Notes under the pieces: model-generated | What the model was told of the DNA's origin: nothing | Databases searched by the model: none | What the model saw: only the letters and a program-made list of their open reading frames with translations | Position numbers and translations under genes: made by a program | In this document: positions 12,485-57,331 of the stretch, in pieces | Layout of the letters: every line of letters begins with the position of its first letter | Position numbering within the stretch: position 1 is the stretch's first letter | Assembly: GCA_017499595.2 (NCBI GenBank) | Contig: CM039004.1 | Location: forward strand, 682,001 to 746,000 | DNA length: 64,000 nucleotides | Direction of reading: 5' to 3' | Origin: Psilocybe cubensis | Lineage: Eukaryota

Positions 12485-12648
12485 TTTCTGCGATTCTGGA
12501 TCGATTGGAACTACTGAAGAACTAACGATGGGTAGAATTTGTTTTGTGGTGGACGATAAAGAAAAGAAAGTGAAACGTGGGAAATCAATTTGCGATCTGT
12601 GTTGCCGTTCGGCTGGACGCTGGTGCTGTTTGTCCGCACCTTGCTACT
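12464..12648. repeat. Split direct repeat A1 (185 bp)
   Basis: aaagaaaagtgaatcgagc...ccgcaccttgctact, identical to 7430-7614. Confidence 0.95.
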
Positions 12649-15589: not shown

Positions 15590-16306
15590 CAGGTGTCCAT
15601 GAATGCCCCCAAGCCATCCCTTTCTTCGGTGCCAACAGTGGCATGAACAGTAGGGTCACTTGTTGGCGTCGTCGAGGTCCCTGTACGCCGAGGAAGGGGC
15701 CTTATTGGGCGTCCGTCCGTCCAAATTCCGATCTGGTCAACGATTGCCTCAAGTTACGAGCGTGGCGCGCTACAACTCACATTTTGAGAATCTGAGCGCA
15801 AATTTCATCATCCATGACACAGATAAGTAGACACTTGCGCATTTCTGGAGGAAATTACGCGCACCAAAAGGAACATATTTGATCAAACACCGTTTGGGCA
15901 CTCAAAAACCCCCTTTCTTCATCCTGGGCGTCCGTCCATCTACAAACACATTCTTTGCAGAATACGTGTCCTGTACGGCGTAGCAGAACAAAAAATCAGA
16001 TACATTGATATTCTGAGTACCAGAGTAAGAATACATACTGCAGGGCAGTGCTACTAGCTGCTTCTCAGATGCTACAAAAGATTGGATACAAATTACACAG
16101 GAAAGAGCAGCAAATTCCTGTGGAATAGCTTGTTTCCATCGATTTCCACTGCAACTCGGGGTTGGTTGCCGAGTGCAACCTGAGTGGTGCATGCGCCCGT
16201 TTGCAGTGTGTACAGCAGGACCCATCGAGGTGTGCTGAAGAGGCGTTAGACTGAACAATTTTCTGTTGAAGATCGGGGGCTTCTTGTTTGGAGGTATAGG
16301 AGGCAT
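15590..16306 (-). pseudogene. RING-finger paralogue 3, apparently frameshifted (3' end uncertain)
   Basis: SCVICIQSFVASEKQLVALPC|HVFCKEC is collinear with paralogue 4, intron included; two 1-nt deletions near 15893-15908 break the last CPxxC. Confidence 0.6.
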
Positions 16307-18525
16307 TGTAGGGAGTAGGAGAGAATGAAGCGGGTGTGGTACGAGTGTGGAGGTGATGGATTAAGAGATTTTAAGCACTGGTACGGGTTTTAAGACAGCA
16401 CAGATTGTGGTAAAGTGATAAGGACGAGTAAGCCAACCGATTCTCTCACTATTCAATCTGCCCTTTGACCAGGATTGCCTGGAAATTGTTGATTTACATG
16501 ATCAGTGGCGAGGCCGCAAAGATTCAAATAAGGTCTTTTGGATAATGATACTCTTTGAGAGCCATTTTGCTCAACTATAAAAGGGGCATATACATATACC
16601 ATTATAATAAAATTCAACAAGGCGAAGAAAGAGCAAAAAGTGACTAACATTGATTATATATTCTCAACAAAGAATCCTTTCAACGAATCAAAGCATCAAT
16701 GGAAACACACCTTGGTCGGTGATCAGCAGAACCTGTCCTTTCAAATTACTCTTTTGATATTGTGGGCTACAAAGCGCTAACAATGCTCTCGACATACCGT
16801 GCATCAGGCAAACAAACAAAATTGACGCGGACGTGTCGAAAAGACGCAAAGTCAGATCACTCGTGACTGTGCGAAGATTGCGGAATTTACCGCTGCCACG
16901 GAGATTGGTACATCGAACTATGATTCCAGTCACTCACTCAAGTTCTACATCGGCAACCAGGGACACGGTAGAACACTAGCTTCATATTCATCGTGTACTT
17001 TTATAGTCACATGGTATCAAAGTCTATCTACGAGAGACCAAATTGCCAGCTAGTGACCTGGAGCGAGCATATCATGACTCTATCCGACATTTTGAGCAAC
17101 ATTTTTCACTCCTGCACGAGAATTGTCTCGATCTTGGCTTTGTGAGTGAGTTGGCCTTAGAGCTTACCTATTTGCAAAGAGAGAAAGGTACTACCTAGAA
17201 AATAAGGGGTTGATCAATAAACTGGAAGGAAATATATATAACCGTGAAATGACCGGATGGTGAACTTGGTATTGTCAATCACACATAGGGATTCAGTCTG
17301 ATCTTCGCCTACATGCTGGATTGGGGTTTTAGCTCGTAAATCAGTTTTTATTCTTGATTCTATTTGTCAGCAACTCTCATAAGATAGACATTATACAATA
17401 ATATGCATTGCTATTGCTAATTGTGGGATTGTACACTGTCTAATTTATTTCTGATATTTAAGGATGCAAGTGAGAATGTGATTGAAATCAATGATTAATT
17501 AGATAACAAAATAGTGGTACATGTACAACATTTAGATTATGATTTACATGGTAAAGCACAGGATCATAATTAGGAAAGCATAAAAGCAATGAATGAATTA
17601 ATAATGCTAAAAGAACGTGAAAGTCATGATGACATAAATCAAAACCAAAAAAAACTTAGAAATCCGTGAAGGACGACGTTGCATGGGTCTTGAACTTGTG
17701 AATGGCTTAAACCGACATGTAGTTTGTTCCAATCTCCTTCTGCCATGCATGGCTCCATCACTCTTGTATAGCGATTCTCACCCGGTCGTAATCTTCAGTG
17801 CCGTCGGCGGCACGTTCTGCAGAGGCGCTACCTTGGGCCACCACTGAAGACCCAGCTCTGCGAGGTAGTGGCCTCATAGGTCTCCCCCCAGTCCTAACTC
17901 CTACTTGATCCTGAATAGACGCGACCGCCGTCCCTGAAGTTGAAGAAGGTCTGCACGATCCAGGCGGCAAGCGTGAGGTTGATGCCACAGGGGCGATATT
18001 CTCCTTGCCGCCTTTGACTGCAGCCTGACGGTGTCGAAGGCCATCATAAATAGCTGCTGCCGCGTCTCTTCGCAATTTGGCAGATGGGACCTTGGGCTCG
18101 AGCGCCTCGGCGACTGCAGCGGAGATTTCATCTTCCAAAGGTTCTACGGATGTGGTGGGTGAGACATCCGTAAAAGCAGTATCGACTATTTGCCGTTCTT
18201 GTACCGTAGTGTGCGATGTTGATGAGGAGTCAGACTGGTCTTGATGTTTGATGAATGCCATTGCGAGCGTAGCTACTTCTTGTAACCTGGATTAAGATGG
18301 CTGGTATGAGTACAAGTCTAAGATGCGTCGCCGGTGGCATGGAGCGTTTAAAAGGAATCGTAACGGGCCCTATCACAGCCGTCAGCACAGTCACACATTC
18401 AACCAGTAAGGTACAGTGTCCAGACAAACAGCAGTGGCGCAAATTCCACTGACTAAATCATGGGAGAAGAGAAAGAAAAGAAAGCAAACCTACTGCGACT
18501 CGAGCTGCCCTTTTTCCTGCTTTAC

Positions 18526-18843
18526 CACATAAGACAGTTTATTTATAACGTACATTACCTAAGATTTAATAATAAGGATATTACGTGACATACGGTGGAT
18601 TTACTCCCGCTACCTAATTAGGAGATTAGCGTGATGTACGTGTGATTTAGCCTGGCAAATCATAGCGTACATGACGTGCCATTTAGCGCTAAATGGAGCC
18701 GCCGGGTGGCCTGCGGGATCCGCGCGTCTACCTACACGGAAGAAACACGGGCCGGAAATGAGCCGGACGGGTCCATTTGCATCCCGTGTATTGCAAGCAG
18801 ACGGATCCGCTTGACCCGTGTTGTGCTGTCAGACGGACCCATT
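18526..18843. repeat. Left TIR of KDZ element
   Basis: cacataagacagttt...gacggacccatt, reverse complement of 33957-34274. Confidence 0.95.
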
Positions 18844-18921
18844 TGACCCGTATCTTCCCAGAGAGGGAGGGATATTTGAGAGGTATTGCGAATCAATGAG
18901 CACAAGGGCTCCAAAAATAAT

Positions 18922-20208
18922 TTATTCATCTCTACCGGTATACAAATGCTTTTCCAAACTCGATTCAATCCCTGCCAGCCCAGCGTCAATTTCCTCCAGC
19001 GCATTATAAGTCAGAATTTCTGACTGCAGCTGATGCAGGCAGAGGTTCTTAAACGTTGTGACCTTGCTGTCATAACTATTGTCGCCGACGGAACTGTCGA
19101 TTATTTGGTCGTATGTTGCCCGTAGCTGCTGCTCGGTATAATTCTAAAATAGTTGTCAGTATCTAGTGCTTGGTAATATCTGAGTGCATACATATAGAAA
19201 AGGAGGGTTAAAATATGCCGTCTGATCTGTCACATCCTCGAACTCAATGTCAGACTGGGTGGGAGGCGAACCGGGGTAGCCGCCCATGGGATCAAACCTG
19301 CCGTAGGTTCGAAAATAAGGGTTTTGAAGGAGCAGGTAGCATGCTTCAGGGGGTGGAGAATAGCGACCTTGCTTCCTCTCAGAGGAAATAGCTGGACGAG
19401 AGTCCATAATGATTTTGTCGACGACAGACGTGTATGAAACATGTGCTGCCATCAACGGCGGAGCCACATCATCCCGGATGACAGGCATAGGTGGAGGATC
19501 CAGGGTATCTGGAATAACAGGCATAGGGGGAGGAGCCAGGGTAGGTGGAATGACAGGCATAGGGGGAGGAGCTAGGTTATCTGGAATGATTGGCATTGGC
19601 GGCGGAGCCGTGTTGTTCCGGATGACAGGCATTGGCGGCGGAGCCGTGTCGTTCCGGATGACAGGCATTGGCGGCGGAGCCGTGTCATTCCGGATGACTG
19701 GCATTGGCGGCGGAGCCAGGTTAGCTGGAATGACTGGCATAGGGGGTGGAGCCAGGCTAGCTGGAATTACTGGCATTGGCGGCGGAGCCAGGTCTTTCCG
19801 GATGACTGGCATAGGGGGCGGAGCCAGGTTAGCTGGAATGACTGGCATAGGGGGTGGAGCCAGGCTAGCTGGAATTACTGGCATTGGCGGCGGAGCCAGG
19901 TCTTTCCGGATGACTGGCATAGGGGGCGGAGCCAGGTTAGCTGGAATAACAGGCATAGGGGGTGGAGCCAGGTTAGCTGGAATTACTGGCATTGGCGGCG
20001 GAGCCAGGTCTTTCCGGATGACTGGCATAGGGGGCGGAGCCAGGTTAGATGAAATGACTGGCATAGGGGGAGGAGCCAGGTTATCTGGAATAACAGGCAT
20101 AGGGGGTGGAGCCAGGTTATCTGGAATGACTGGTATTGGCGGCGGAGCCAGGTCATCCGTCCTTGCTGTGCGTTTGCTTTCCTTAGAGTTGCTAATATTT
20201 GAAGACAT
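18922..20208 (-). CDS. KDZ cargo: proline-rich tandem-repeat protein (upstream exon to ~20460 possible)
   Basis: 19 copies of a 12-aa unit (LAPPPMPVIxxx); spliced last exon NYTEQQLRATY..LYTGRDE-TAA at 18922. Confidence 0.6.
19455..20151. repeat. Coding minisatellite, 36-bp unit x19 with a 108-bp higher-order period
   Basis: ggcatagggggcggagccaggttagctggaatgact-type units. Confidence 0.95.
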
Positions 20209-20693
20209 TGCTGATGCTCAGAAATCAATTAAAATTTACTTGAATTAATGCCATTAGTCTTACATTTTATAGGTTTTACGGGAGGAGGTTCCTTCAGTTT
20301 TTCAAGAAGCCTGGTAAGATTGTTGAGACTGGTGTAGTCAATGGGGGAATTTTTGCTAGAGGTGGGAATAAAGTTGTAGGAGGACATACAGTCCAGAAAG
20401 TGCAACTGGGTGGGCTTGTTTATATATCTCACGGAATACAATACTATCCGAGGATTCTCCATGACACGGAAATAGATTCACCCGTGTATCGAACTTAGCA
20501 ACTTTTGCACAAACTGGATCTGGTGAAGAAATCACATGACTCAGATTGTACATGTTTGTGTATGGTTTTGTTTTGCGGGACCGCTTTTTTTTAGACTTTT
20601 TTTAGACTAACTCCAACCACGATCACCACCCTCACGTTCTACCGTGCCTCACCACTTTAACGCGTCTTCCCCCATAAAAACACGCTTTTTTCA

Positions 20694-23264
20694 ATGGCCG
20701 CTTCATCTTCCACCACCGCCACCTTCGCCCAACGCCTCGCTGACTGGGAAAAAAAGTTTACCGAGTGCTACCGCAACGGTGAAAGCGCGTTCAACGCTGA
20801 GTTGGAGCAGCTTTACAGGGACTTGGTAAGTTCTCAATTTTATAAGATCATGACTTGCTCAACAAAAAAAAAAAAATTCCAATAGGTTCCATTGTGTCAG
20901 GAGCATGTCAGGGACGCCGCACGCTTCCGGCTCATTGACTATGTTGCGAGCCCCGTTGTCTACTCGTACAAAGTCATCCAGGGCAAGGACGGCGAGAACA
21001 TCTACAGGTTTGAGGTCGACTGGGCGACGCTCAAACATCAAGTCGCCAACTTCAAGGCCTACCAGGAAGGCCAGGAGGCACAGAGGAAGAGGAGGGAGGA
21101 GGAGGAGCAAGAGAAGAGGAGGGAGAAGGAGGAGCAAGAGGAGGAGGAGAGGCAGAGGGTGGAGGAGAGGAGGAAGAGGGAGGTGAGGAGGAAGAGGGAG
21201 GAGAAGAAGAAGAGGGAGGAGGAAGAGGAGAGGCAGAGGGAGGAGGAGGAGGAGAGGCAGAGGGAGGAGGAGAGGAGGAAGAGGGAGGAAGAGAAGCAGA
21301 AGGTGGAGGAGAGGAGAAAGGATGAGAGGAGGAAGAAGGAGCAGGAGAGGAGGACCAGGGAGCAGGAGAGGCAGAAGGCGGAGGAGAGGAGGAAGAGGGA
21401 GCAGGAGCAGGAGCAGGAGCAGGAGACAGACGAGGAGAGGAACAAGGAGGAGACGGAGAAGAGACGGGCCGAGAAGGGCAAGGGCAAGGCAGTCGAACCC
21501 CCGGTGGAAGACGGACCCGTGACAGACGCCCACAAAGACAAGGGCAAACGGAAAGCGGCGGACCCCGTGGAGTCCATTCAGTTGGCTCCAGCGGATTACA
21601 GGGGCCCACGGACAAAGAAGGGGGAAATTATTCCCCACATTACCGCCTCCAACATGCCCGGTCACCCAGCGTACAGGGAGAAGCTGGAAAGATTGGCGAA
21701 GTCCAAGCAGGGGAAATTCAGGAGCAAGGCGATCATAGGAAGCCACACGGACGAAGACGCGGACGCGGACGTCGACGAGGACGACGAAGGCGATAACAAA
21801 GGGGCACCGCCTACCACCCCCACTGCCACCCCCACCCGGAAGATGCGCACGCGTTCCGTAAAGAAGGACACCGAGGACGATGTCCCCCCCATCAGGAAGG
21901 CGCGGTCGAGATCCCAGAAAGTGCGCCAGGTGCCAGAGGGGATGGTGGACATGGTGGAAAGGTGCACGGCATGCATCAAATTCAAGGTGCCATGCTATGT
22001 CAAGGGGGAGACAGGCACTGAGCCTCTCGTCCCCGTGAAGCACCAATCTTGCGAGTCTTGCAAGTCTCGCAAGATCCACTGCAGCTTCTACCCGGGGCGC
22101 AACACCTTCGTGGGTCAATTTTTGACGACGCCACTAGGAAGCTATGGGGAGGCGTTGAAGTTGGAGGAGGGAGAAGATGTTCCGGCGAAGGGGAAGGCCG
22201 GGGAAGGGTCGTTCCCCGAGGATGTGGGAGAACTGCTTGTGCAGCTCTTTGAGCGCCAAGGCAGAATCATGGAACGGCTGGACGGGTTATCCGCGTCCAT
22301 GACGGCGATTAATGCACGGATTGCGACGTTTGCCGAGACGAACTTGGCGGTGGAGAACAGGATGAAGAGCATCAAGGACGGCATCCAAGAGGTGAAGGCC
22401 GAATGGACCATGGCCAAAGAACAAGTGGCAGGAAGCACCTCGCTTTCCGTCACGATGTTCAACGACATCACCAAGAGGATCAACCACGTCCGAGATGTGG
22501 TCGACGATTTGCTGGAGCAGGATGAACAAAGGAATCCCGCCCCCAAACAGGCAGCAGGACCCTCCAAGACGGAGGTCGAACAAGAATCGGGTCCGTCGCG
22601 GACCCGTGAACCCACCTCTGTGCCACAATCCCCAAGCGCACCACCACCGCCAGCACCCCTCCCTTCCCCACCTCCACCTCCAGCAGCACCCATTCTCCCT
22701 TCCCCTCCTCCACCACCGCCAGCACCTGTCCTCCCTTCCCCTCCCCCACCTCCACCCGCACCCGTCCTCCCTGCCGTGTCTGCGCCACCAACAGCGCTAT
22801 TCTTGCCCGGTTCGACTCCGGAAGCGCCTTCGCCCCCCCCAGCTGGCCGACCCTCGCTCCCACCGGTACCGCCCATCCTTTCCCTGTCTCCACCACCCCC
22901 TCTCCCAGCTCCACGTCCTCGAAGTTCGACGTCAAAGGCCGCACCGTTGTCAAAGGGTGCACCATCGTCAAAGGCCGCGCCATCGTCAAAGGCCGGCCCA
23001 TCCTCAAAGGCTAAGCCATTGTCAAAGGCTAAGCCATCCTCCAAGGCTGGGCCATCCGGGAATGGACACTCATCGGAGTTGTCTGATCCCTCGGACAGCG
23101 ACGAGGTTGAAATTGTGGAGGAGGAGGATGTTGAGATCGTGGCGTCCACGCTGCCCGCGTCAAACATAGCCACAAAGACAAGGGCTGGACGAAAGCGAAA
23201 GGCGGAAACGACTCTGGCTGAAGCATCGCGCTCGCCCAAAAAATCCAAGGCCCAAAAAAAGTAG
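20694..23264 (+). CDS. KDZ cargo: charged coiled-coil plus Zn2Cys6-like cluster protein
   Basis: Exon 1 from ATG 20694, intron ~20826-20885; CTAC-x6-C-x18-CESC-x6-C at 21963-22082; E/R/K tract; Pro-rich tail; basic NLS-like end. Confidence 0.7.
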
Positions 23265-23542
23265 TGTATTTCAATTCTTTGTAACTTTTTTTTGGTCTCC
23301 TTTTTTGCCTGTCATATATTACATTGCTCACATCCCTATACAATTTTTTCATCATTTGGACTGTATATAGTTTTTACTCTCATGTGCTCATCTGTTTTAT
23401 ACCTCTCCCAAAAAGTAGCACTTGATGATTTTTAATGAACCCCGCTTTCTGTTTTGATTTTGTGTGAAAACATGTTTGAGAAACATCAAGATAAGAATAA
23501 AAAGCATCACATTCAATAGGTATCATGAATCTACTTCAACAG

Positions 23543-25853
23543 CTAGGCTTTCAAAGTTTTTTTTCTTTGTCTTTTACCTGCTACAGCAAGCAGACTTGCT
23601 TCCTGAAGTGCTAAGGCATCCGAAGTCACATTCCTGCGGGCCCGTGTTTCATCCGTATCTGGACTTGTTACTGTCTCCACAAAGGCATCACAAGTCACGT
23701 CCCTGCCGGCCCGTGTATTATCTGTGTCTTGGGTTGTTCCTGTTTGGACTCCATCTTCTTCCACTGTGTTAAGTGGATCTGAGTAGGGCTTTGTTCTTTT
23801 CCTAGGTTGAATCCTTCTAGTTGGTTTTGGCTTAACTGGGGGGGGTACAGAACTCTCTTCATCGGGTCCGTCCATTTCCGCCGTTCCGACATATGGCTTT
23901 GTTCTTTTTCTTGGCATAATCTTTCTAGCTGGCTTGGGAGGCGCCTCCTCAACCTCTGGAGTTGGGCTGGATGATGGATTGACAATTGTTGGGCTGGATC
24001 TACTTGGTAGAGAGGGTGGCTCGCTAGATCTTGAAGGTGCGTCGGTAGGAGTCTCATCCGTCTCTGGCGTGACTTCAAATCTGGCAGTAGTGCGTGGCAT
24101 CGCGGATGCCGGACTACCCCGTCCATTATCAAACTCTGACAGATTGGATGATTCAGAGTCGCTTGAAGATTGGGTTTGAAGTCGTATAGCTTTTTGCCTC
24201 AGCCGACGTTTGGTTATGGCTGCAGGAGGTGGAGGTATCGGGTGGGCTTCTAGGCCGTCAAACAAGTTGGACGGATAGAGAGGTTCCATAATGTCATAGC
24301 CATTTCCAAAAACCTTTGAGAATTTAAAGGGGATGTCTCCTTGCGCTTGACGGTCCCTCCATAGCTTGAGAATTGCAGAAGTTGACTCCAGGCGGAGCCG
24401 GCTCGGATCCGTCACGGGGATTGAACTTGGCCAATACTCTGGATCAATCATTTCTGCAGAACGCCTTTCAAGAGCATCCCAAGGAACACTTGAACCAGGC
24501 CTATCCTTGGCTAAAGCTGTATACATAGTTAGCAAGTTTGTTGAGGACATAGACAAATTACACACCATAAACCTTGTTCATGTAAATTCTAATAATTGAC
24601 TTTTGCGCATAAGCGACTTCTCTCCCAGTTGAGCCATAGATAGGACTAGGTACTATTGGAAATCCATTGCTGCTAAACTTGAGGGATTTTTCATGAAACG
24701 ATGCATCTGGCAGTGCTGGATTGGCCACACCCTTCTCTATTTCTGAAATGTGGACGAGGTATTGAACAAACGCTCTGCGAAAAGCGGCCAACTCGGATGG
24801 AAAGAGTTGCCCAAAGGAAGGAATTCTGACATCGTCGAGTGCTAGATCGCTTGTCTGGGTCCTTCAATGCCCATCAGTCAACATTAATACGGGCCAAATT
24901 ATTCCGCCGTGAATGCTTACGGCGGAAACTTTATCCGCCGTAGGGTGTTTACGGCGGATAAAGTTTCCGCCGTAAGCATTCACGGCGGAACTTGTTCATG
25001 CCGTGTTTAACACTTACATTGAGTATTCGATTTTACCCTCAATATCATAATGCCCCTCAAAGGTAATGGACCTCATACCCATTCTCTGCCACTTAAGTTT
25101 CTCCATTTGTCGAAGTATTTTTCTGCCTTGCCTGGCAGCAGTCCTGCAGATGTCAGATTGACGGCGGAAACAAGTTCCACCGACTCACTTTGCCTTCATT
25201 GATTTTGAAACACCTTTCTTATTCCATTCCTCGAGGATCTCCATGAACCTGTCCCGCTCCTCCTGAGTCAATCTGGCCTCAACCTGCTTACGTCCTTGTT
25301 GATAAAACTTCATCCAATCTTTACTTCCACGAGCAGCATTCCCTGATAGAAGCGCAACCTCGGAGTCAATCTCTGCCGACTTCTCCTCACGGAATACCGT
25401 CTGAAAGGTTATACGGGAGTTCAATCCTTCCAATTTTACACCAATTCGATTTGACGCATGGTTTCTAAACCAATTAAAAATTCGCTATTGTGATGGTTTA
25501 TGTGTGTAACAAAATTTTCAAAGAAACAACGAGCTCACATGCTTCTTCACCTTCCATTCTTTGTGTAGTTGCTTATCTTCCTTCCTAGCACGTCTAGAGT
25601 ATCTGTGATCCCATGTAGCTTGCAGCTCAGGTATGACAGTGTTCTGTATGTAGTCTGCTTTGGATGACTTTGATGTATCTTTGTAGGGCTGTACATGCTT
25701 TTTCAACACGCGCATTTCCTTTGTGGTCCATATATTTGATTCTTCCGGCGGAAAGTCACCCTCCGCCGTCTGTCCGCTTCTGGGTCCGTTGTGGGTTGTG
25801 GCATTTGCGGTGGAAGGAAGCGGATCCGCGTCGGGGGATGCAATGGTGGGCAT
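23543..25853 (-). CDS. KDZ cargo: unknown multi-exon protein
   Basis: ORFs 25518-25853, 25185-25433, 24558-24791 and 23543-24568 linked by GT-AG introns; VPWDAL..MIDPEYWP..DPSRL motif seen in agaric TE-associated proteins. Confidence 0.6.
24902..24990. repeat. Perfect intronic palindrome (41-bp arms, 7-nt loop) made of ACGGCGGA motifs
   Basis: ttccgccgtgaatgcttacggcggaaactttatccgccgta gggtgtt, then its exact reverse complement. Confidence 0.95.
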
Positions 25854-26732
25854 AATTGCAGCGATGTAACAAGTAGCTTATCGATGAGTATCTGTGTGAT
25901 CTAGTCAAATCTCACGTCATACGGAGATAAAATAAGCTTCCGATCATACTAAATGAATGATGTGATGTCATATTTTTCCCAATCAGGTAATCCCGCTTCA
26001 TCGTCGGCCACGATGATCAAAGCATGCTGGTCGCTGTCACATACATTGACCTCATGATTTTGCAATAGTTCCCTCTGCACTCAATCAATAAACATGAAAT
26101 TTTGTAAACATTTAGCGCTTTATATAAAGATAATCTTACAAGGTTTTAAATTCTTGTTAGATGGCTGTAAAGATACAGAAACACAAAATTCAAATTCACG
26201 TCTTCTCACCCAAAACTTGTGAAACCCAAAACGGCAGTCATCTCAGAGACCATGAGAGGTATTCAAATGCATAATTTTTTTCAAAAAATATAATGATCCC
26301 AGTGAGCTCATTTTGACACATTTTCTAGTATATTGAGAATATCTCCTTAAATACGAGGATTCACATTCTACAAAAAATGTCATTCGGTAGCTATTAAAAA
26401 TATCTTTCATATGATATACGCCGGAGGAATGAGGGGCCAGCCAGTGAAAAGATATTTCAAAAACACTCCAAAGTGTGGTTCTGAAAGGGTCGTTCTGCAT
26501 CATATTGTACATTTATGATGGGATCACGTCCATTTTGTGCATCTCTGGATTAAGTTTTGTTCATAACATTTCACTCACTCATCCAAATATGCTGCAAGAT
26601 AGATCATATGAAAGCTATTTTTCTCCTCTTTAAAACGGCATAATTGAGGGAAATTTATCTACAGAAATAAACATGTTATACTACATTTAGATCTGCGCTC
26701 ACAGGCTGTCAGACTCTTTGTTTCCAACATCC

Positions 26733-29700
26733 ATGGGCTTCAAGAAAGTACCTGATAGGGGATCGGATGAGGAGTTTCCCAATGTTCGGGAGGCCTCCTG
26801 GTCTAGTGGGGCCAAGAAACGAAAGAGAGGGCGGCCGAGGATCCACAAACTTCCTGCAGAATCATCATCAACAAACCTCCCTCAAACAACGACTTACTCT
26901 TTCCAAAACCATGAACACAACATTCTGGAAGAAGAAATACCTCATTATCCGGGAGATCTAACTGATCAGCAGGTACTTGATAACCTGAGACAGCTAGATG
27001 ACGACAGAACGGGAGGAAAGGTATGTTTTAACATGTTTTCAGTAGAATGATCAGGATGACTTTACCTATCCAGTCTCAAAATGATTACCTGAGGGAATGG
27101 CTCCCGAAACGAGAGGTGTATCTTGGAACAATGATTGGAGGAGAAGCCCCGGATCCGGATCTGAATGGACGGTGTCAGCAATGTCAAGGAATGTCTGGAG
27201 TGTGGAGATGTTGCCAATGCTTTGGCTCTAGAATTTTGTGTTCTGAATGCCTGCGAAGAAACCATCAATTTACACATTTCCACCGCGTTGAGAAGTGGAC
27301 GGGTCTATATTTCCGTCCGGGAGCTCTGTGGGAAGTGGGTGTCAAGTTGTATTTGGGTCATAATGGGAAGCGGTGTCCTTATCCCACGGATCCGAGCCAT
27401 CTAGGATGCGACGGCGGAAACAATTCATCCGGGAGTCATGGGCACGGCGGAAACAATTCGCCCATCTTTGAGGATGAACACGGATTGGACCTGGATCCGC
27501 TTCCTGCGAGCAATGACCAAGAATCCTTTACGGCTCAGCTTCTGGCGGACCCGGAGGTACCCCATTTGGTTGAGCTGGACGATGGAGACGATGAAGATGA
27601 TGATCTATTCGAGGAAGTCGATACAACCTATCTGGACCAACCTCGTCCAAAGGCAGCAGACAACAATGGAATTCCTTTCAAGGCAATTGTGCACACCTCC
27701 GGAGTCCATTATCTGCCCGTGCGAACATGCACATGCCGGTCCGTCCGCCTTCCGTCTATCGATTTACAGTATCTGGAGATGGGATTATTTGCAGCCAGCT
27801 TTGAAAACGTTCAAACTGTGTTCACAGTTGAGGTCCTTGAGGACTTTCGGATGGACAACCTCGAGTGCAAAACGTCGGCTTATCAGTATTACCAAAAGTT
27901 GCGAAGACTGACTTCGCCAGCGTTTCCAAAAAAGGTGCTGAACCGCTATCGTGAATTGAGAAGGCTTAGTAGAGAATACAGGGACCTTGTCCTGAGACGA
28001 CAATATGGAGAAGGGCATACAAGAGAAGCGGTGGTCCCTTACTATCATCATTGCCATGATTCATCACCAGAGAGGATGGGTATTAATGTATCTGATCCAA
28101 TTGACGGCGGATCTGATAGTCCGTCTCAAGAAGTCGGAATGTCAACGGACCCGTCTCTGGGACACGGCGGATTAGATGGTCCGCCTGCACCACAAATGAC
28201 GCGGACCGAGGATCATCCCAAAGTTGAAGATAGGAGAGGGAAGTTGGCCTTATTCTGCCCCGCCTGTCCACAGCCTGGAATAAACCTACCTGATACCTGG
28301 ATTGATGATGCTGACAGGCAAGTTTTAGTTATTCTTCAAGGGTGACTGCAATTAACAGCAAATAGCAATCTGTACATACGTAGTTATGTTGCAGATGGTA
28401 ATTTCAAAGCAGATCACCTCAATCAGAAAAACGAGGGAGACTATGTTTGGTTGAGCGTTGGAGAAGGATACATGACTGCTCCGGGCCCATACAAGGAGCA
28501 CATCAAGGAAGCAATTTCTCTTGCTCCACGTTATAAACGGGTGCGTTATCTACCATGATTTATCTTTCACGGCGGATGCTTACGTTCCGTGTCACAATCT
28601 TCCACGGCGGATGCTTCCCTTCCGTGTCAAAAAAATCTTCCACGGCGGATGGCTTATCCTCCGTGTAAAAAAATATCAGGAACAAACATGTCATAACTAC
28701 CACGCCCAGAAAGCTGAAAACAGAGTCAGCCCGGGTAAGAGAGTACGTGGAATTGGGGCACACGCTTGCGCTAGGCACGGATGCTTCTGTCCATCCAGCG
28801 TTGTCGATTTTGACAAAGGCGAAAAGCAGATGCACATGGATTGGTCTTTGACTCAGGCCAGGGAAACTACCAACACACAGGGAATCACAAAACATTTGGA
28901 AATCTACGATATAAACTGTCAATATTGCGTTAACTTGGCAAGGCGTCTCTCAGAGTCCACAAAAATGCATTGGCCACCTTCTGTTAAAATGATTTTTGCA
29001 ATTGGTTTATTTCACGTCCACGGGCACAAGACGGAATGTCTTTACAACTACGCATCCACCTATGTCCCGGGTGTGGGAATCATTGACGGAGAAATCCTGG
29101 AGCCGTTGTGGTCCGTGTTAAATGACACATCCCGGAGTACACGTTCCGCTACCACTGCCCATCGAGCAGAGGTTTTGGACGACCACATGGGGGATTCCAA
29201 CTGGAAGAAGACCATTAATATGGCTGCAACAATTGCTGCAAAGTTCAAACGGGCACGGGAACAGTCCGGAATCACAGACCGATTTTATAGGGGTATCACG
29301 GATCAACAAGATTCCGGGCTCATCAACACTTGGGAAGATGAAATTTCAAAAGCAGAAGCGGACCGAGAACAAGGTGTGGCCGACGCTGTTGGCAAGGTAA
29401 TGGCAAGCAAAGTGAAAACGGCTGCTGGACGCCAAGAAATTGAATTGCATCTTTCAAATATGGAACTTACATCTAATGGTGCTACTGGAAAGGCAGCATG
29501 GATATCATCCGGCTTAAAACTGGAGCAAGCGCAGTACAATTATTTCAATTGCATCCTACAGAATTTAACATGCTTTTAGATTGGAGCTCAGGGACCATGT
29601 CAGAAAGCTCGGAAAGCATCCTTCCACCGCGCAGAAACTTGACTTGGTCAATAAACGTCGCTCCATGCGGACCCGCGTTGAAGCCTTCTGTCGATCCGCT

Positions 29701-30655
29701 ATGACCTTCATGGGCGAAGATGTCTTGGAGGATATTCAAGGGGACATCGCTCCCATACTTGACTATGAAGTCAGTGACAACGACGATCCTGATCTTGGAA
29801 ATGTCAACATTACCCGCGCGGATCCGGAACGACAGCCGCTTCCGTTTCCCTCCGCCGTCAAACAAGATTTCTTTGACGGCCTTGACGCAGGAACAAACCT
29901 CATTTTAAAAGGGCTTCGCAAACTTGAACTTCAAATAAGACATGGCCACGCAGAGGACTGTCTGGAAGCGGTCCGGTCAGCCTTGATCCAGCTTTCTTGG
30001 CAGTATAAATATCAGGTTCGGACCGCCGACTCCGTCTATATGGGGACTCGTGCTTGGGATGGCGTCAAGCTTTTGAATGCTTCCTGGAAATTGCACCGGC
30101 GACTCTACAACACAAACCGTCAGAAGATGATCTATTTATCTGCTGGCGTGCGAGACGAGGATAATATTCGGAAACAATATCCCATTCTGCAAGTCCATGA
30201 TTGCAAGCATAGTAATGCCGTGTCGGATCCGAACATTCGCGGAGGAAGCTCGGACCGTCTAAGTTGGATTTGGAGATCCCGTCAGGGCCTGGACAATGAT
30301 AATCAATTATACGTTAATGAGTGTGAGTACTGCTATTTGTATTTCTAATTTTTTTCTCAAGGGCTTCTTAGTCTTTAGGCTAAACTGGCTCCGCGCGCGA
30401 GCTCAGAGGAATAGATGGCAAGAGGAGCTGGCCTTGACAAAAAAGGAAATGGAATGGACTGTCAGATTTTATGTGTATATGGCAAAGACATGGCGTGCAC
30501 GGCATGATTTTGTTCCTGACAGGTTAGTTGGTCACAGGGCAAATGCTCAAAAGCAGATTGCCATGTGGAATGATCTGGGGCGGGCCGCGGATAAGGTCTT
30601 CCGTCAAATTAACCCGGAGTATCCGTCCGTGTGGAGATTTATAATTACAGATTAA
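26733..30655 (+). CDS. CxC2-KDZ transposase, multi-exon
   Basis: AT-hook-like KRKRGRPR; CxC2-type CQQC..WRCCQC..CSECLRRNH..FHRVEKWTG; LALFCPACPQPGINLP; VADGNFK, CARHGCF..DFDKGEKQ, YDINCQY, FHVHGH..C, DGEILEPLW; SWIW and RLNWLRARAQRNRWQEE. Confidence 0.93.
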
Positions 30656-30699
30656 CCAGTTCTTTGAACATTCTTGTTGTATCCCATCTCGTTGAATTC

Positions 30700-32324
30700 A
30701 TGCACTTACCGCGGCTTTTTAAACCTCCTGTCGAGGACGAACATCATCTCCTTACCTATGATGAGCGACGTGCTCTGGCCAAAGTTCATGTCCATATTTG
30801 TGGTGCACGGATCCGTGCCGGATACCGTTTGTTCATTGCAAACGGAGACTCTGTTTCCTCCGTGCGTCGCCAAAAATGGATGTATTTGCTCGACCTGGAG
30901 GTGGTAAGACAGTAATTTTGAACGATTATATCTTGTATTGAGAACTGGTCGTCAGGCTATACTGCTGAGAGTACTCGGATACTGCTATGTCAATGGATTC
31001 CAAGTCGATATTCCATTTTTTATATCAGAAATTCTCAATCAGAGCGTACATGCCGTTTTGAACCGAACTCCCCACCATCGAGCTGTTCTATTTGAATCTC
31101 TAAATCAAAGCTGGTCAGCATGGGAAGATGATGAAATTTTAAATCAGACCAAGAGCTGGGGATATTGGTGGAGGGACGGATTTGCTGAAGGCGATGAGTG
31201 GCAAGTTGCCTTTGTTACCGTTGAATCGCAAGCAAGAGAATTTTGGAACAAGGTATGTTTTTTTATTGCTGTGGATTATATCTGATTTGCGTCCTTCCCA
31301 CCAGGTGGTTCTGCCTGAATACCAACAAGAGGTACTCCGGCTAAATAATCAGAGGAAAGAAGCTAAGGAGGGCGCAAGTTCATCTACCTCTGGGCCTCCA
31401 AGAAATCAGGAAAACAATCCCAAGGGCAAGGGAAAGGCGGCTGAACGGACATCCGTCCCCACCTCGGGGAAGCACGGATCCGCGTTGACGGGAAAGCACG
31501 GCTCCGCGTTTTCACCGCCCACGGGGAAACCCAATCCGCCGACCCGTGTTGCAAACACGCGGGATGAAACATCCCCAATTGCAATTTCTGACCACAGACC
31601 GCCCTACTGTCCCCGCTGCGGTCAGCCTATCCTAACGGGCGTAATGAGGGAGTTGGCTCACCTGCGCCGGAATGTGGCGGACAAAATGAAAAATGCCCAT
31701 AAAGCAGTGACTACTTCTTCGGCCGCCTTGGGCAGATATTCTGTATTGGAGAAGATGTGGATTGACTCTAAGGAGCACCCGTTCTCTAACGGCAAGGGGC
31801 TTTCAGCCAAATACAAATTTCAGCATCCCGTTCACCCTTCTCCTGACAGTTGGGGCGCTATAACGGCTCAAGCCCGGTCCTTCGAGGTCTCAAAGCTCAA
31901 AGTCGCTTCATTTTACATCAACGACATTTTTTATTCTTTTATTGCCGTCAAGGAACTACCTTTTCATCCACTCTAGTATCATTCGCCACCCTCCAACACT
32001 GCAAATATTCATCTCCCAACAGATACTCTGCCTACTCCCGGTTCCGTCAGCCCTCCGTCAAATGCACACACCAGCAATGCCTTCCTTTTTAACGCAAGGT
32101 CAAGACCTGTTTTCCCGGGAGAAGAGGATGATATTGATAGAACGTCCGATACCACTGAATCCTCTACACCAGCTACGTTTTTAGAGCATCTCGCACAGGA
32201 CTTTGAAGAGGAGGCGGATGAGGAGTCTTCCGCCGGTGATACGACGGAGGAGTCAGATGCTTCCGGTAACTCGGAAGAGCTTAGCGAGGACGTGTCGGAA
32301 ACACCCTGGGATGAGGAATCTTAG
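30700..32324 (+). CDS. KDZ cargo: unknown multi-exon protein (in-frame TAG at 31974-31976)
   Basis: Exons from ATG 30700, ~30957-31252 and ~31304 onward; CPRC motif; the same frame stays open after the TAG through an acidic tail to 32324. Confidence 0.5.
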
Positions 32325-32551
32325 TTGCCCACCTCTCGCACAGGACATCGAAGAGGAGGCGGATGATGCCTTTTCCGCCGGTAATACGACGGCGGAGTCC
32401 GATGATTCCGGTAACCTTGGAAGAGCTCAGCGCGGGCGCGTCGGAAACACCCTGGGACAGAGAATTCTGGTTGTTCTGTAGCTTTCGTACCGTTTTGTTT
32501 TGGAAATATAAAAAAATCTTCCCCAAACCCAACTTCCAAGTCAAAAACTGA

Positions 32552-33831
32552 TCATATTTCAAAATCAAAAGTGTTGGTGGCCGGTAAATTTGCAAAAAGA
32601 TCGTACGTAGTAGACCATCCCGCCTCTTGGACTCCCAGCTCTTTAAATACATTCCTACGCATGTAATAGACTATGACTGCCCTATCTCCCTCGCACACCG
32701 CGCCGTGTTGAAGCAACCTGCCAGTAATTGCAACAAGGGTCATGGGATCATACTTGTACCGAAGTCCAAGGCCAGGAAGCTCAAGCCGTCCGTGTTCACC
32801 CTTCCCAAGTGGCATCAAAAAATCGTACCATGAGTAGCATGACCCATTATCCCGATGGTACGGTGTATCTCGGTTGCTGATGGCGGTCATGACTCCAAAG
32901 GGCGAACTCCATATTGTGAGAATTTGCTTCAATATTTCGGCCTTATGGACGAACTCCGGTTCCGCAGCAAGCCGTTGAAGAAATTTTATTCCCGCCCGGT
33001 ACTGCTCGGGGTGTATAATGCTCAAGATGGCTCCCAGCAAAGCCGAAGATGTCATCATGTCTCGTATAAACTCCTGTCCAATAGGATTACACAAGTCCAA
33101 GGAGACCTCAAGCGGGTTGGACGTCTGAGGAAAATATGAGGCAGTATAATACTTAGCAAACAAGTTTCTCACCTCATGGCCTTGCTGAAACCATGCCGGG
33201 GAAAAGTTAAGATTTCCAGGTTGAAGCCAACCTGGCTCATGTCGAAAGTAACTGTCATTGACCCTCCAGCTTGTGGCCAAAGGTGCCGCCTTGTGAATCA
33301 TTGTTTCAATATCCCGTAATGAATTCCACACACTCTCCTGTTACTCTTTAGAACGCATAATATAGGAATTAATCGGTCCGTTTCTAAAACTCACCACCCT
33401 TGTCTCTGACAAAATACCTGGCAGGTACCACACCAATATGTTGCCTGCACTATCGATTACAGTTCCGGGCAGGGTTTGGTACTGTAACGTGGAATGCACC
33501 GGAGGAAACTGGTCTTTCAGGCGAGCCTCAACGGCAGAATTCTGACCCGTGCAACGTGCGCTGAGATGGGTCAAATATTCTTCTGCATCCCACGTCGTAT
33601 ATTCTGCCATTCACACATTATTTAATCTCAATTTTCAAAGCTTATTGATTGCATACCTTGATTTTCAAATGCCTGCAAAATCACCTCCACAGCTAGATTG
33701 CACTCAAACATGGTCTCAGCACTGAAGTTTTCCCGGATTTGATTAGGCAGTTCTGCATGCCAAAGACGACTAGCTATCTTTGCCTTCATGTAGTTTGAGA
33801 GGGATTGGGTTAGCTCAAAGGCATAATCCAT
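32552..33831 (-). CDS. TET/JBP-family 2-oxoglutarate/Fe(II) dioxygenase, four exons
   Basis: NILVWYLPG, NFSPAWFQQGH, ISNRDTPYHRD (HxD), LELPGLGLRYKY, GRLLQHGA (distal H), GDRAVIVYYMR (2OG-binding R): the fungal TET/JBP pattern. Confidence 0.88.
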
Positions 33832-33956
33832 ACTATCAGGGTATGTGGAAAGGAATTTGCTGCCAGTATAATCTATACACCTTATTACATATATTAACGG
33901 TCATCCAATGTACGATTCAAGGCGGATATTTGTCGGAATACAGAAGCGGATGGATG

Positions 33957-34274
33957 AATGGGTCCGTCTGACAGCACAACACGGGTCAAGCGGATCCGTC
34001 TGCTTGCAATACACGGGATGCAAATGGACCCGTCCGGCTCATTTCCGGCCCGTGTTTCTTCCGTGTAGGTAGACGCGCGGATCCCGCAGGCCACCCGGCG
34101 GCTCCATTTAGCGCTAAATGGCACGTCATGTACGCTATGATTTGCCAGGCTAAATCACACGTACATCACGCTAATCTCCTAATTAGGTAGCGGGAGTAAA
34201 TCCACCGTATGTCACGTAATATCCTTATTATTAAATCTTAGGTAATGTACGTTATAAATAAACTGTCTTATGTG
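33957..34274. repeat. Right TIR of KDZ element
   Basis: Reverse complement of 18526-18843; no mismatch seen by eye. Confidence 0.95.
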
Positions 34275-36494
34275 GCTTTACTTCCTCAAGCTGCGCCTCG
34301 AGAGCCTTCATTCCCGAGACCATGGTTTCAACAACCGCTGCACCTCGCCTGACAGACCCCTCAAGTACGCTGTTGTCCACACGCAGCTGCTCGTTTAAAC
34401 TCTTGCTCTCTGCAAGGGCGGCCTCCAACCGCGCGATTTTTGAGAGCAAGGCCTGAATCTCGTCGGCTTCGGATGAGAAGTCGACAAAAAGAGGTACATA
34501 ATGTCCGACCAGAACTTCGTCGGCTTCTGGCTGTCTATACTGTGGGAGAGTATGTGATCAGTAATATGTACTGGCGTTGGTCTAGCCACAATTTACGAGC
34601 ACGAGGGGAGATTACATACATTTCTGGCATCTGAGTGCGGAATGCCATGGTTCATGGCATTGGTAAGTAGCCATTTGAGGAATACTAGGAGAAATCACGC
34701 GCACCAAAGGGAGTGTACTTTATTGAGCACCGATTGGGGCACTCATAGTACCCTCGATCCTCATCCTGCTGCTCCGTCCACCGGGAAATGCAACCAGTAC
34801 AGAACACATGCCCTGTTGGCGAAGTAGAACCAAAAATCAGCTACGTTGATATTCTAAGTAACAGAGTAAGATTACGTACCGCAGGGCAGTGCTATTGGCT
34901 GCCTCTCAGATACTTCAAATGATTGGAGACAAATTACACAGGACATGATATAATACAAAACAAAAATACACTGTGCAAAAGAGGGTATATGAGGGTGCAC
35001 AGCACCAGAGAATATATGTGTAGGAAATGGTAGGACGAAGAGCTGAAGGGAGAGAACAAATTCAACAAACTGCGAAATTCCAGGGGCACGGTGGGCACCC
35101 CGCACATGTGATCGTTGAATCCATCTAGCCCAAATTTACCACAGATGGCACTTTTGCCTGATATGGCATTCGTGGGGAATTGGGGGTGCGTTGTTTGAAC
35201 TTGTGTGGGTGATGATGTGAACAGTGAAATACAGTGATGCCGATGATACAGTTGGGCGTAGATTGGTTCAACCATTTTTTTATGGATCAATTTGGTTGTA
35301 TTACAGCAACTCTTGAGTGTTTTATTATTGTGGGGTTTCTCGTGTTAAAAATGCAAATTGAATGCATCCTTGCCCTCTCATTCAAGAGCGAGAATTAAAA
35401 CCCCCTCCGACTCGAACACTCTATAAGTATTTGACTCATGACCGTTTGAACTATCCCATCAGACCCGTCTTTTACCCTTAGACTCATCCATTGTGATCAG
35501 CCACCATTGCATGCGTTAACGCAAATTGACATCACAATAGAAACAGAGACGGTGACAGAGATAGAGATGATGGGCTTATACACAAAATAGATCATACAAA
35601 GTGTGTTCAAACGAACTAACTAGTAAGAATGCAAACGAAAAAAAATGAAAGCAAAACTGATATTTGTTCGGTGCGCCTGGCGCTCAAAAGTATTTTACTT
35701 CTTTTGCTATTCTTACTCCTTTCACCCTTGGGTTTTGGACCCTTCTTTAATTTGCCCTAGCCTTTCCAGGGGTCGCATATTGGCCCCATTAGTCACTCAA
35801 GAAGCTTTTCGTCTAGATTATCAATTGCCCTGCTAGCTACCTTGTCGTACATCTCTACCGTAAGGCTTAGCCACAGTAGGAGAATAAATAGTGAGGGTGA
35901 GGGTAGGGGAGGGCTAACCTAGAGGCGTATCGACACCCACAATCGTAATCATACCCAAACCTCCAAACCTCCAAAGTTAAAAAAAATTAAAGATCACAAA
36001 AAACACTTAGAGAGAGAACAAAAGAAAGAAATTCATTCCAAAATACATGACATTACCCAAATAACATATAGGGAAGGAGAAGGGGATTCTAATGAGATAT
36101 CCAATAGCCGATAGCATGAGCAATGAACATCGTGATAATAATGGATGATGGTGGCAGTGAATGAATGTCTGGATATTAATGATGATAATTATGATTGTGA
36201 CTATGGATGAGGACGAGGATGTGGATGTGGATGGGGATGTGGATGGGGATGTGGATGTGGGTGAAGATGAGGTGACGAACGGAATCTACGTGCATAGCAG
36301 AGAGCATTGGCAGTAGCATTGGCAGTAGCGGGTATCAAGTAGCAGTGCAACAAGGAAGCTGAAGTTGAACAAGGAACAAGGACCAAGGAGAGGAATAACA
36401 CGGATAGAGGAGTGGGTATCATCCCAAGCGGTAAAAAAAGAAAGAAACCAAGAGACTCTCCAATCAACTTTGACCTTAACCGCAAGAATTAAAA

Positions 36495-46100: not shown

Positions 46101-46199
46101 TATTGAAAGATATACCATTTAGCTATAACTTACAGCAATAATCCATGATTTCATATCATTAAAACGTGGTGAAAATGCACATTGCCATGTAGGCACTCA
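43117..46199. repeat. Foldback-like structure: 1064-bp inverted repeats (43117-44180, 45136-46199) around a 955-bp spacer
   Basis: Arms are reverse complements with only two differences noticed, both CpG transitions near the outer end. Confidence 0.92.
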
Positions 46200-57308: not shown

Positions 57309-57331
57309 TTGTACTTCAGCAGGCCGTAATT

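Follow-up and report, generated by a model that had tools for sequence, protein, structure and literature searches.

Family-specific CGG dyads as a candidate cis 'self' motif of a TET-carrying Kyakuja transposon in Psilocybe cubensis

Introduction

Transposons of fungi that encode TET/JBP dioxygenases are believed to remove the silencing marks from themselves, and how an enzyme without known sequence preference favours its own family is a question for which a family-specific, CpG-containing cis code is a candidate specificity determinant. In the sections of Kojima (2025; PMC12730594) considered here, a 7-bp target site duplication (TSD) and 5′-CA..TG-3′ termini are given as hallmarks of Kyakuja (section 3.2.1), and each TET is described as serving its own family, yet its action is speculated to be non-specific (section 4.2). 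Here, an intact element of this kind, 15,749 bp long, is described from a 64-kb window of the genome of Psilocybe cubensis (the whole stretch of DNA that was analysed, 64,000 nucleotides; all positions refer to it). Like the TET-carrying Kyakuja in the parts of PMC12730594 consulted, it has a CxC2 KDZ transposase, a Tet_JBP gene, a 7-bp TSD and CA..TG termini, and its first 7 nt, CACATAA, equal those of Kyakuja-1_AuPo in the supplement. The proteins of the region are 98–100% identical to annotated P. cubensis proteins, and the DNA is eukaryotic and intron-bearing.

The 12-bp motifs of En/Spm TnpA and the AAACGG hexamers of Ac are subterminal at both ends of their elements, contain CpG, occur in part as inverted pairs and have an element-encoded reader. 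For VANC and VANDAL21 of Arabidopsis, the portion of PMC5735166 considered here describes a short family-enriched motif in introns and weakly constrained DNA, its accumulation in tandem repeats that are gained and lost between copies, different motifs in related families and a non-transposase protein carried by the element; all of these are likewise found at the present locus.

A first-pass annotation of the window, made from its sequence, had noticed repeated copies of the word ACGGCGGA in the element and proposed that a Zn2Cys6-like cargo protein recognises them and could steer TET or the transposase to the element. The follow-up presented here leads us to favour another reader: ACGGCGGA would be the family-specific form of a cis 'self' motif of TET-carrying Kyakuja, read by an element-encoded zinc protein, most likely the transposase, a tentative reading to which we assign a probability of about 0.42. 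It builds on several features of the motif, namely exclusivity, dyad form, kinship with the terminal inverted repeats (TIRs), an excess within exons at the level of DNA and turnover from copy to copy, together with the position of its arrays, which is conserved across families.

Distribution of ACGGCGGA in the element

The word ACGGCGGA occurs 19 times in the window, as compared with 0.79 ± 0.89 expected from 100 dinucleotide shuffles, the largest of which gave 3 occurrences. All 19 lie within the 15,749-bp element and none in the remaining 48,251 bp, which answers the comparison of inside with outside that had been suggested as a check. CpG richness is ruled out as the cause of this excess, as the observed/expected ratio of CpG inside the element, 0.67–0.93, is no higher than in most outside bins. 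Every site listed in the first-pass annotation is present, and five more were identified (19455, 23877, 25762, 29851 and 32389). The element and its genes comprise the features below, the gene models being predictions whose introns rest on GT..AG borders, continuity of open reading frames (ORFs) and the source annotators' models of paralogous copies.

18526–34274, plus strand: intact Kyakuja (KDZ) DNA transposon, 15,749 bp (TIR pair, read ends, depth)
18519–18525: left TSD copy, GCTTTAC (end sequence; the empty-site joint from 18518 to 34275 shares 7 letters)
34275–34281: right TSD copy, GCTTTAC (end sequence)
18526–18843: left TIR, 318 bp, 100% complementary to the right TIR (inverted-repeat search)
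33957–34274: right TIR, 318 bp (inverted-repeat search)
19156–20217, minus strand: gene A, proline-rich protein of 36-bp (12-amino-acid, APPPMPVIP-like) repeats (repeat search, ORF)
20695–23264, plus strand: gene B, cargo protein (ORF; paralogues P0001 and P0002 map to 20694–23261)
23543–25853, minus strand: gene C, 668-amino-acid protein, five exons (ORFs, paralogue models)
26733–32324, plus strand: KDZ transposase with CxC2 and KDZ domains (Pfam; ~1691 amino acids in the paralogue model)
32552–33340, minus strand: main exon of the Tet_JBP dioxygenase (PF12851, 3.1e-19; more exons upstream to ~33900)

The 19 sites are distributed over introns (10, in three introns), exons (8) and the region 3′ of the transposase ORF (1), with none in the TIRs, as follows.

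24902–24990: perfect 89-bp palindrome, arms 24902–24942 and 24950–24990, 41 nt each and 7 nt apart, with sites at 24903, 24919, 24934, 24951, 24966 and 24982
24864–25016, minus strand: gene C intron containing the palindrome (GT..AG; spliced out in the paralogue model P0128)
25141–25185, minus strand: gene C intron with one ACGGCGGA dyad, at 25161 (spliced out in P0128)
28541–28676, plus strand: transposase intron 3, three tandem units CACGGCGGATG-N-TCCGTGT, at 28569, 28604 and 28642 (P0008 splices out ~28541–28676)
27405–27460, plus strand: variable coding linker with two ACGGCGGA (27411, 27444), read as D-G-G and H-G-G (transposase alignment)
28095–28190, plus strand: lineage-specific coding insert with two ACGGCGGA dyads (28104, 28164) and ACGGACCCGT (28145) (transposase alignment)
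23877–23884, minus strand: ACGGCGGA in gene C exon 5, adjoining CGGGTCCG (word search)
25762 (gene C exon 1), 29851 (transposase exon 5) and 32389 (3′ of the transposase ORF): single ACGGCGGA sites (word search)
19455: one ACGGCGGA in gene A, which holds 9 further CGGCGGA words, from its APPP codons

The 19 sites represent ~10–12 separate loci, since several of them come from the palindrome, several from the tandem trio and several from two duplications in coding sequence. The intronic palindrome with six copies of the word proved to be as first described, its arms being 100% complementary; the six half-sites alternate in orientation every 15–17 bp, and the outer units have the 26-bp form TTCCGCCGT-N8-ACGGCGGAA. 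The intron labels were likewise borne out by GT..AG borders, ORF continuity and splicing in the annotators' models of paralogous copies, and both coding segments that had been described as low-complexity transposase inserts fall in unalignable linkers of the transposase. In an alignment of 12 transposases (the closest matches and a spread of genera, chosen among 120 listed of 226 matches), only 3 have the second insert, and the DGG/HGG words are found only in the family of the window element.

Dyad form and kinship with the subterminal repeats

The ACGGCGGA unit is a dyad, since the tetramer TCCG follows 7–10 nt downstream of 12 of the 19 sites, as against 2.35% of random positions in the element. 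A sense-strand bias of these dyads was considered and rejected, as 6 sense and 3 antisense dyads among the independent loci, read by eye, do not differ significantly. Related dyads were identified in the TIRs, and a short palindrome, CGGATCCG, links the TIRs with the gene bodies.

18762–18861, plus strand: three subterminal direct units (C)AGACGG(A/G)YCC-N-CCCGTRT (sequence reading, MAFFT alignment)
18802, 24404 (24404–24411), 25821, 27150, 27387, 29819, 30224, 30808, 31475 and 33991: CGGATCCG palindromes (word search)

The subterminal units are ACGG-N11-13-CCGT dyads, at 18767, 18801 and 18833, two of which are mirrored in the right TIR (33981 and 34013), and they include CGGATCCG (18802) and ACGGACC (18833). 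MAFFT placed the ACGGCGGA units of introns and exons in register with the TIR units (GACGGAT versus GGCGGAT, CCCGTGT versus TCCGTGT), and ACGGCGGA is therefore regarded as a variant of the repeat in the element's own subterminal regions. Further out, the TIR (18526–18760) has another repeated word, (A/G)CGTACAT / ATGTACG, present at least four times, which may be the actual site of terminal recognition and separate from the dyad units further inside.

The related words share the confinement of ACGGCGGA within the window: CGGATCCG occurs 10 times inside the element and never outside, CGGCGGA 32 times and never, ACGGACC 10 times and never, and ACGG-N11-15-CCGT 19 times inside and once outside. 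CGG-N2-CCG was found 27 times inside and 3 times outside, as compared with 5 and 6 times for the everted control CCG-N2-CGG. Two of the CGGATCCG copies lie in the TIRs and eight in gene bodies, where six of the eight, in two different genes, read NCG-GAT-CCG (x-Asp-Pro); CGGATCCG and ACGGACC(CGT) are present in both TIRs and otherwise in gene bodies.

Excess of the words in exons

Synonymous codons were shuffled 2000 times in 9,192 nt of confident coding sequence, with the following results.

ACGGCGGA: observed 7, mean 0.57; 0 of 2000 shuffles reach the observed count
CGGATCCG: observed 7, mean 0.44; 0 of 2000
CGG-N2-CCG: observed 20, mean 2.96; 0 of 2000
Everted control CCG-N2-CGG: observed 3, mean 2.02; 645 of 2000
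CpG: observed 483, mean 518.5; 2000 of 2000

The word excess in exons is thus an effect at the level of DNA. A peptide-level Asp-Pro motif was ruled out, as Asp-Pro dipeptides are not enriched (19 versus 20.8 expected); the Pro of these dipeptides is encoded by CCG in 9 of 19 cases (21% usage overall), and in 8 of these 9 the pair follows an NCG codon.

Turnover between copies

Raw reads of one other strain (run X14) were mapped on positions 18400–34400. Depth is ~116 in the flank and ~440–650 (~5 times the flank) in the element interior, suggesting some 4–6 copies, about 5, in this strain. Loose read ends into many different flanks are placed exactly at the termini (301 reads at 18526, 321 at 34274), and a joint of 18518 with 34275 that shares 7 letters is covered by 87 reads; the insertion is therefore polymorphic, because these reads represent the empty site. 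With its perfect TIRs, an empty allele in another strain and ~5 copies, the element is young and active. Internally deleted derivatives are also present, joining 20341 to 27254 (10 reads) and 32931 to 33926 (27 reads); the former is without genes B and C and the transposase N-terminus, and the latter is without part of the TET gene; the two can serve as natural functional controls.

The motif arrays themselves differ between copies. Two 63-bp shorter forms of the palindrome join 24901 to 24965 (126 reads) and 24918 to 24982 (129 reads), each with 9-bp microhomology at its ends and each keeping a single 26-bp unit, and in the intron-3 array one unit is missing in 73 reads and one is added in 13. 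Noncoding tandem repeats that are gained and lost between copies, as described for VANC targets, are thus found here, with 10 of the 19 sites in three introns. The possibility that the palindrome is an independent miniature inverted-repeat transposable element (MITE), which had been named as an observation that would overturn the first-pass interpretation, was rejected: depth in the palindrome bin is 443 in this one strain, as compared with 499 and 562 in the neighbouring bins, no loose read ends were found at its borders among those listed, and ACGGCGGA is absent from the window outside the element.

Among the differences listed between the window copy and the X14 reads, C>T (136) and G>A (147) exceed A>G (74) and T>C (74); this loss of C and G in other copies is a pattern as expected had those copies been methylated and deaminated.

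Related TET-carrying Kyakuja loci

A metagenome scan with the KDZ core exon identified 29 partial loci (87,992 bp in total; 41–72% identity). In these loci, ACGGCGGA occurs once and CGGATCCG never, and each family repeats its own CpG words, including GACGGTCAC (in 21–23-bp units), GACGGGCA, CCGCGGGC, CCCGTCGG and TCGGTGCCCG (25 times in L013), as well as GCGGGACC (35-bp units), palindromes of TTCCGCGGAA, and CAAACGCG. For 13 of the 16 loci with at least 150 bp of sequence there, a CpG-bearing tandem array is positioned just upstream of the exon-4 homologue, and it lies in the homologous intron in L013 and L020, the two of the 13 with exon 3 on the contig. The three exceptions are L001, whose intron is 47 bp long, L016, a weak case, and L022, which has a single motif in the intron and its arrays further downstream. 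Pooled over all loci, CGG-N3-CCG occurs 137 times, as compared with 12 for its everted form, and CCGCGG 127 times. A TET homologue is encoded downstream on the opposite strand in 7 of the 7 loci that reach far enough. Thus, the position of the array appears to be conserved, and its word family-specific. In L010, the intron array (GTGACGGGCGCCCGT units, 5830–5924) and a palindromic repeat beyond the TET gene (105–182) share the core GACGGGC; the latter is near a likely element end, and the finding echoes the link between array and subterminal repeat in the window.

A proposed self motif with the transposase as candidate reader

From these observations we infer that a protein binds the sites, which protein does so, and what its binding brings about. 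The functional unit would be a dyad of ~24 bp, R-CGG-CGGA-N7-10-TCCG-Y, as a variant of the subterminal TIR repeat GACGGAYCC..CCCGTGT. In introns, its copies would have multiplied through duplication, both tandem and inverted, and in unconstrained coding linkers they would have been tolerated; units together with the short palindrome CGGAYCCG would have been written into exons through synonymous codon choice. The sites are predicted to bind an element-encoded, zinc-chelating DNA-binding protein that would also read the element ends, most likely the N-terminal part of the KDZ transposase, with its zinc-finger-like and CxC2 modules. We favour the transposase over the gene B cargo protein as the likeliest reader because every related family has the transposase together with its own motif array, and because the units are kin of the TIR repeats and the related families have arrays, whereas the cargo family has few members. 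By binding along its entire length, such a protein would label the element as self, so as to assemble or regulate transposition and conceivably also to let the TET enzyme of the element act locally. The data are in keeping with a cis 'self' code that is kept by selection on DNA and consists of subterminal repeats, an expandable intronic array and dispersed copies.

Several points weigh against this proposal. The background for the enrichment is the 48 kb of flanking window. None of the 19 ACGGCGGA copies is in the TIRs, whose units are related to it and not identical, so that two readers are possible. Among the related loci, the four with both exons comprise two with arrays, one with a single motif and one with none, and the count of 13 of 16 comes from partial soil contigs; as exon 3 is off the contig in 11 of the 13, the intronic location of those arrays follows from position. 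Most of the metagenome contigs stop short of the N-terminal DNA-binding part of the transposase, and the contigs also end before the upstream region in which a cargo gene would lie; over the span that they do cover, no C-x2-C-x6-C..C-x2-C-x6-C pattern was found in six frames of the 29 loci and no match in tblastn searches with P0002, P0007 and P0128.

The gene B protein as a possible alternative reader

The principal alternative, which is that of the first-pass annotation and which we consider unlikely though still a serious candidate, holds that a dimer of the Zn2Cys6-type cargo protein of gene B binds the ACGGCGGA dyads and brings TET or the transposase to copies of the element, in the manner of VANC/VANDAL anti-silencing or of IDAX-TET2. 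The protein is composed of an N-terminal domain, an E/R-rich stretch, a Cys6 domain, long helices and a Pro-rich tail, with an intron at ~20829–20885.

21963–22082, plus strand: Cys6 domain, C-x2-C-x6-C-x18-C-x2-C-x6-C (translation, profile searches)
22224–22532, plus strand: predicted long alpha-helices after the Cys domain (AlphaFold2 (AF2), predicted local distance difference test (pLDDT) ~80; residues 129–196 and 203–231 of the 240-residue query)

The whole protein has no Pfam match, and the Cys domain alone matches only PF00172 (Zn_clus; E 0.001, 19.5–19.6 bits), below the Pfam gathering cut-off of 21. PF00172 is also the only Pfam family matched by 4 of 4 domains of the cargo family (best E 6.6e-7); the distant relative P0007 passes the cut-off as a whole protein, with 21.7 bits, P0006 scores 16.4 bits, and the paralogues P0002 and P0003, taken as whole proteins, have no match at E ≤ 0.1. 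The six Cys are invariant in the 4 aligned members, including P0007 with 24% domain identity. In a PDB profile search, all 5 matches at E ≤ 10 are Zn2Cys6 proteins (LAC9, LEU3 twice, PPR1 and CYP1). In all four printed alignments (LAC9, LEU3 twice, PPR1), the halves are swapped: the first half of the query corresponds to the second half of the match, and the second half of the query to the first, basic half. The swapped order suggests circular permutation, and the domain reads as a putative circularly permuted Zn2Cys6 cluster. The C-terminal half, C-E-S-C-K-S-R-K-I-H-C, matches the DNA-reading half of the canonical domain (PPR1 RTACKRCRLKKIKCD). The inter-half loop of PF00172 usually has 5–12 residues. 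Because the halves are swapped and the loop has 18 residues, the Zn2Cys6 fold is only predicted; the AF2 model of the Cys domain has low pLDDT (60.6 for the 240-residue query, 58.0 for 50 residues), each C-x2-C starts a short helix in the 240-residue model, and a Foldseek search of the PDB with this low-confidence model gave nothing at E ≤ 0.001. A complex prediction for two copies of the helical region scored 0.11. The claim of a Zn2Cys6-like cargo thus held with respect to the profile and PDB matches, and is qualified by the score below the cut-off, the swapped halves and the x18 loop.

Several features speak for this protein as the reader, namely the exclusive PF00172 matches of the family with P0007 above the cut-off, the uniformly Zn2Cys6 matches in the PDB, the six Cys kept in P0007 and a 68-residue helix predicted behind the domain (pLDDT ~80). 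Inverted CGG pairs at fixed spacing are the classic site grammar of Zn2Cys6 proteins, and the ACGGCGGA dyads have this form; as ACGGCGGA is not in the TIRs, its reader could differ from that of the ends. The anatomy also resembles that of VANC targets in being intronic, noncoding, tandemly repeated and gained or lost between copies (as far as described in the part of PMC5735166 considered). However, the window protein is below the Pfam cut-off, P0002 and P0003 are without a match at E ≤ 0.1, and the fold of the domain, with its swapped halves, its 18-residue loop, a pLDDT of 58–61 and no Foldseek match at E ≤ 0.001, is putative. The cargo family is tiny, with 5 matches among 1.84 billion representatives and none confirmed among 249 pattern matches in a metagenome scan, while arrays are general in the related families. 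Furthermore, the homology between the units and the TIR repeats speaks no less strongly for the transposase, and nothing ties the cargo protein to the sites or to contact with TET. The proposed analogy with VANC was thus upheld for the anatomy (family motif, introns, repeat gain and loss) and departs from it in that 8 of the 19 sites are exonic, unlike in VANC.

An extended form of this idea, in which TET-carrying Kyakuja use a fast-evolving, family-specific CGG-dyad 'address code', placed in the subterminal TIR repeats, an expandable array of one transposase intron and the synonymous codons of all their genes, and the permuted Zn2Cys6 cargo is its Psilocybe reader, confining the 5-methylcytosine (5mC) oxidase to its own family, appears still less probable. 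If true, it would be an enzymatic fungal counterpart of VANC and would explain how each of several TET-carrying families that share a genome can benefit from its own TET. A transposon-borne Zn2Cys6 domain in circularly permuted form would, separately, add a new form to the largest transcription-factor fold of fungi; in a literature search, neither circular permutation nor transposon-encoding of Zn2Cys6 was found among the matches listed. As a young, strain-polymorphic element with natural deletion derivatives in a cultivable mushroom, the transposon makes experiments realistic.

Alternatives without an element-encoded reader

Fungal Zn2Cys6 factors read CGG pairs, and tandem multiplication is typical of enhancers. 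The arrays might accordingly be intragenic enhancers built of host transcription factor sites, each family having captured a different factor that times its expression, and the CGG-pair grammar with family spacing (N2 here, N3 or CCGCGG in the relatives) as well as the conserved position in a transposase intron would suit such a role. We regard it as quite improbable, because the same type of unit is present in the subterminal TIR repeats and the words are present in exons of all element genes, which fits whole-element marking better; none of the three mapped motif classes lies in the divergent promoter region (25852–26732), and 0 of the 19 sites are in the 48 kb of neighbouring DNA, which includes host-like genes.

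A neutral origin, in which mini-satellites and palindromes expand by slippage and units spread by ectopic conversion without function, would account for the variation of the arrays in number and length between copies, for the 9-bp microhomology at the deletion ends and for the recent local duplications (27411/27444, 28104/28164, the tandem trio and the palindrome). It is nevertheless quite an improbable explanation, since ~10–12 separate loci have the same 8-mer, as against ~0.2 expected per 15.7 kb, the exon excess over synonymous shuffles comes with a clean orientation control, and 13 of the 16 informative loci of relatives keep the array position although their motifs all differ.

Finally, action of the sites as nucleic-acid structures, either cruciforms or intronic RNA hairpins that feed or evade RNA interference, is highly improbable: the palindrome does fold strongly (−56.7 kcal/mol, z −17.3) and the tandem trio unusually well (z −3.4), but neither single units nor those of the TIRs show unusual structure (z −1.0 and −0.1), the second arm is only 4 nt long at many sites, short palindrome forms coexist in other copies, and no Rfam family was matched.

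Host element, its genes and neighbourhood

The inverted-repeat search returned a perfectly complementary pair of 319 nt (18525–18843 and 33957–34275), which was trimmed by eye to 18526 and 34274; the termini read 5′-CACATAAG..CTTATGTG-3′, with the TSD GCTTTAC on both sides, in agreement with the 7-bp TSD and CA..TG ends of Kyakuja. The element carries five genes, A, B, C, one for the KDZ transposase and one for the Tet_JBP dioxygenase. The KDZ catalytic domain of the transposase matches PF18758 (7.6e-38, 130.8 bits), and the zinc-chelating CxC2 domain N-terminal to the KDZ core matches PF18803 (1.4e-21); the best matches, among 120 listed of 226, are CxC2+KDZ proteins of Agaricales. In the transposase N-terminus (26733–26860), the basic stretch KKRKRGRPRIHK includes a GRP core that resembles an AT-hook, as well as a likely nuclear-localisation signal. 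The Tet_JBP domain match (32555–33340, minus strand) lies between the TIRs and has the HxD motif (HRD), and its catalysis is predicted. The proteins of genes A and C have no Pfam match, and a protein atlas search with the gene C protein gave only unnamed Basidiomycota clusters with scores below 0.9. The 36-bp coding repeat of gene A (19374–20249, 17 registers) varies in copy number among the X14 copies, with joints that step back 288 nt (101 reads), 144 nt and 72 nt.

The element interrupts an ORF of coiled-coil-like character (18400–18525 and 34282–34557, minus strand) that is uninterrupted in X14, and direct repeats of 70–87% similarity (15801–16102 and 34641–34943) flank the element at a distance, so that it was inserted in already repetitive DNA. 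Near-identical pieces of the element (0–8 differences per 175–840 nt) were found in contigs of runs X10, X11 and X12, which bear the labels of three other organisms; these labels may stand for close relatives, or else several species have the element in common.

A second large element of ~22.9 kb (40291–63180) has imperfect TIRs of ~1.1 kb (86–94%; arms 40291–41378 and 62117–63180) and an ORF matching a Plavaka transposase (PF18759, 4e-10, 57158–58753). It is a Plavaka and not a KDZ element, and it offered no comparison for co-variation of motif and protein. It has words of its own, in CCCAGGCTCATTGC arrays (53401–53534 and 57011–57307) and a 26-bp CpG-rich tandem repeat (61846–62132) adjoining the right TIR. 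A 1096-nt inverted repeat (99%; arms 43114–44209 and 45107–46202) is located in the most CpG-depleted part of the window (CpG observed/expected 0.24–0.54, with TpG+CpA raised), and the segment 43114–46202 looks like an old, deaminated foldback or nested element within the Plavaka element. Elsewhere, a 185-nt exact direct repeat (7430–7614 and 12464–12648, 5 kb apart) possibly represents the long terminal repeats of a retroelement.

Comparison with known systems

In the part of PMC12730594 considered, the Laccaria Kyakuja families are without TIRs, whereas the present element has perfect TIRs of 318 bp; no cis motif arrays or zinc-cluster cargo are reported there, the words 'zinc' and 'subterminal' do not occur in the text, and Psilocybe is absent from the text and from the portion of the supplement searched. 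The Cryptococcus elements KDZ1–3, as described in the part of PMC12810828 consulted, resemble the present element in being large (9–11 kb), mobile and of low copy number, with long TIRs (139–241 bp) and strain-variable insertions; they differ in having TSDs of 4–8 bp and CxC1 in place of CxC2, and no TET or motif arrays are described for them.

The Cys6 domain of gene B shares with Zn2Cys6 proteins (PF00172; GAL4, LAC9, LEU3, PPR1, HAP1) the two C-x2-C-x6-C units, the basic half C-x2-C-K-x-R-K-x-x-C, a second half of the P-C/V-P-C type (LEU3 EPCTKCAKKNVPCILK versus ERCTACIKFKVPCYVK) and a long helix behind the domain. Unlike the canonical domain, it has swapped halves and an inter-half loop of 16–18 residues and is encoded by a transposon, and no activation or regulatory middle domain was detected in gene B.

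As a difference from En/Spm and Ac, the units of the present element have also multiplied within an intron of the transposase gene, where related families keep the same position, and are scattered in exons of all five genes. VANDAL21 is a Mutator-like element and the present one a KDZ element, and their proteins are without sequence relation. Unlike the VANC motif, the motif described here has CpG, forms dyads and palindromes, is kin to the TIR repeats and is present in exonic copies, and the element that carries it also encodes a predicted 5mC oxidase of the TET/JBP type.

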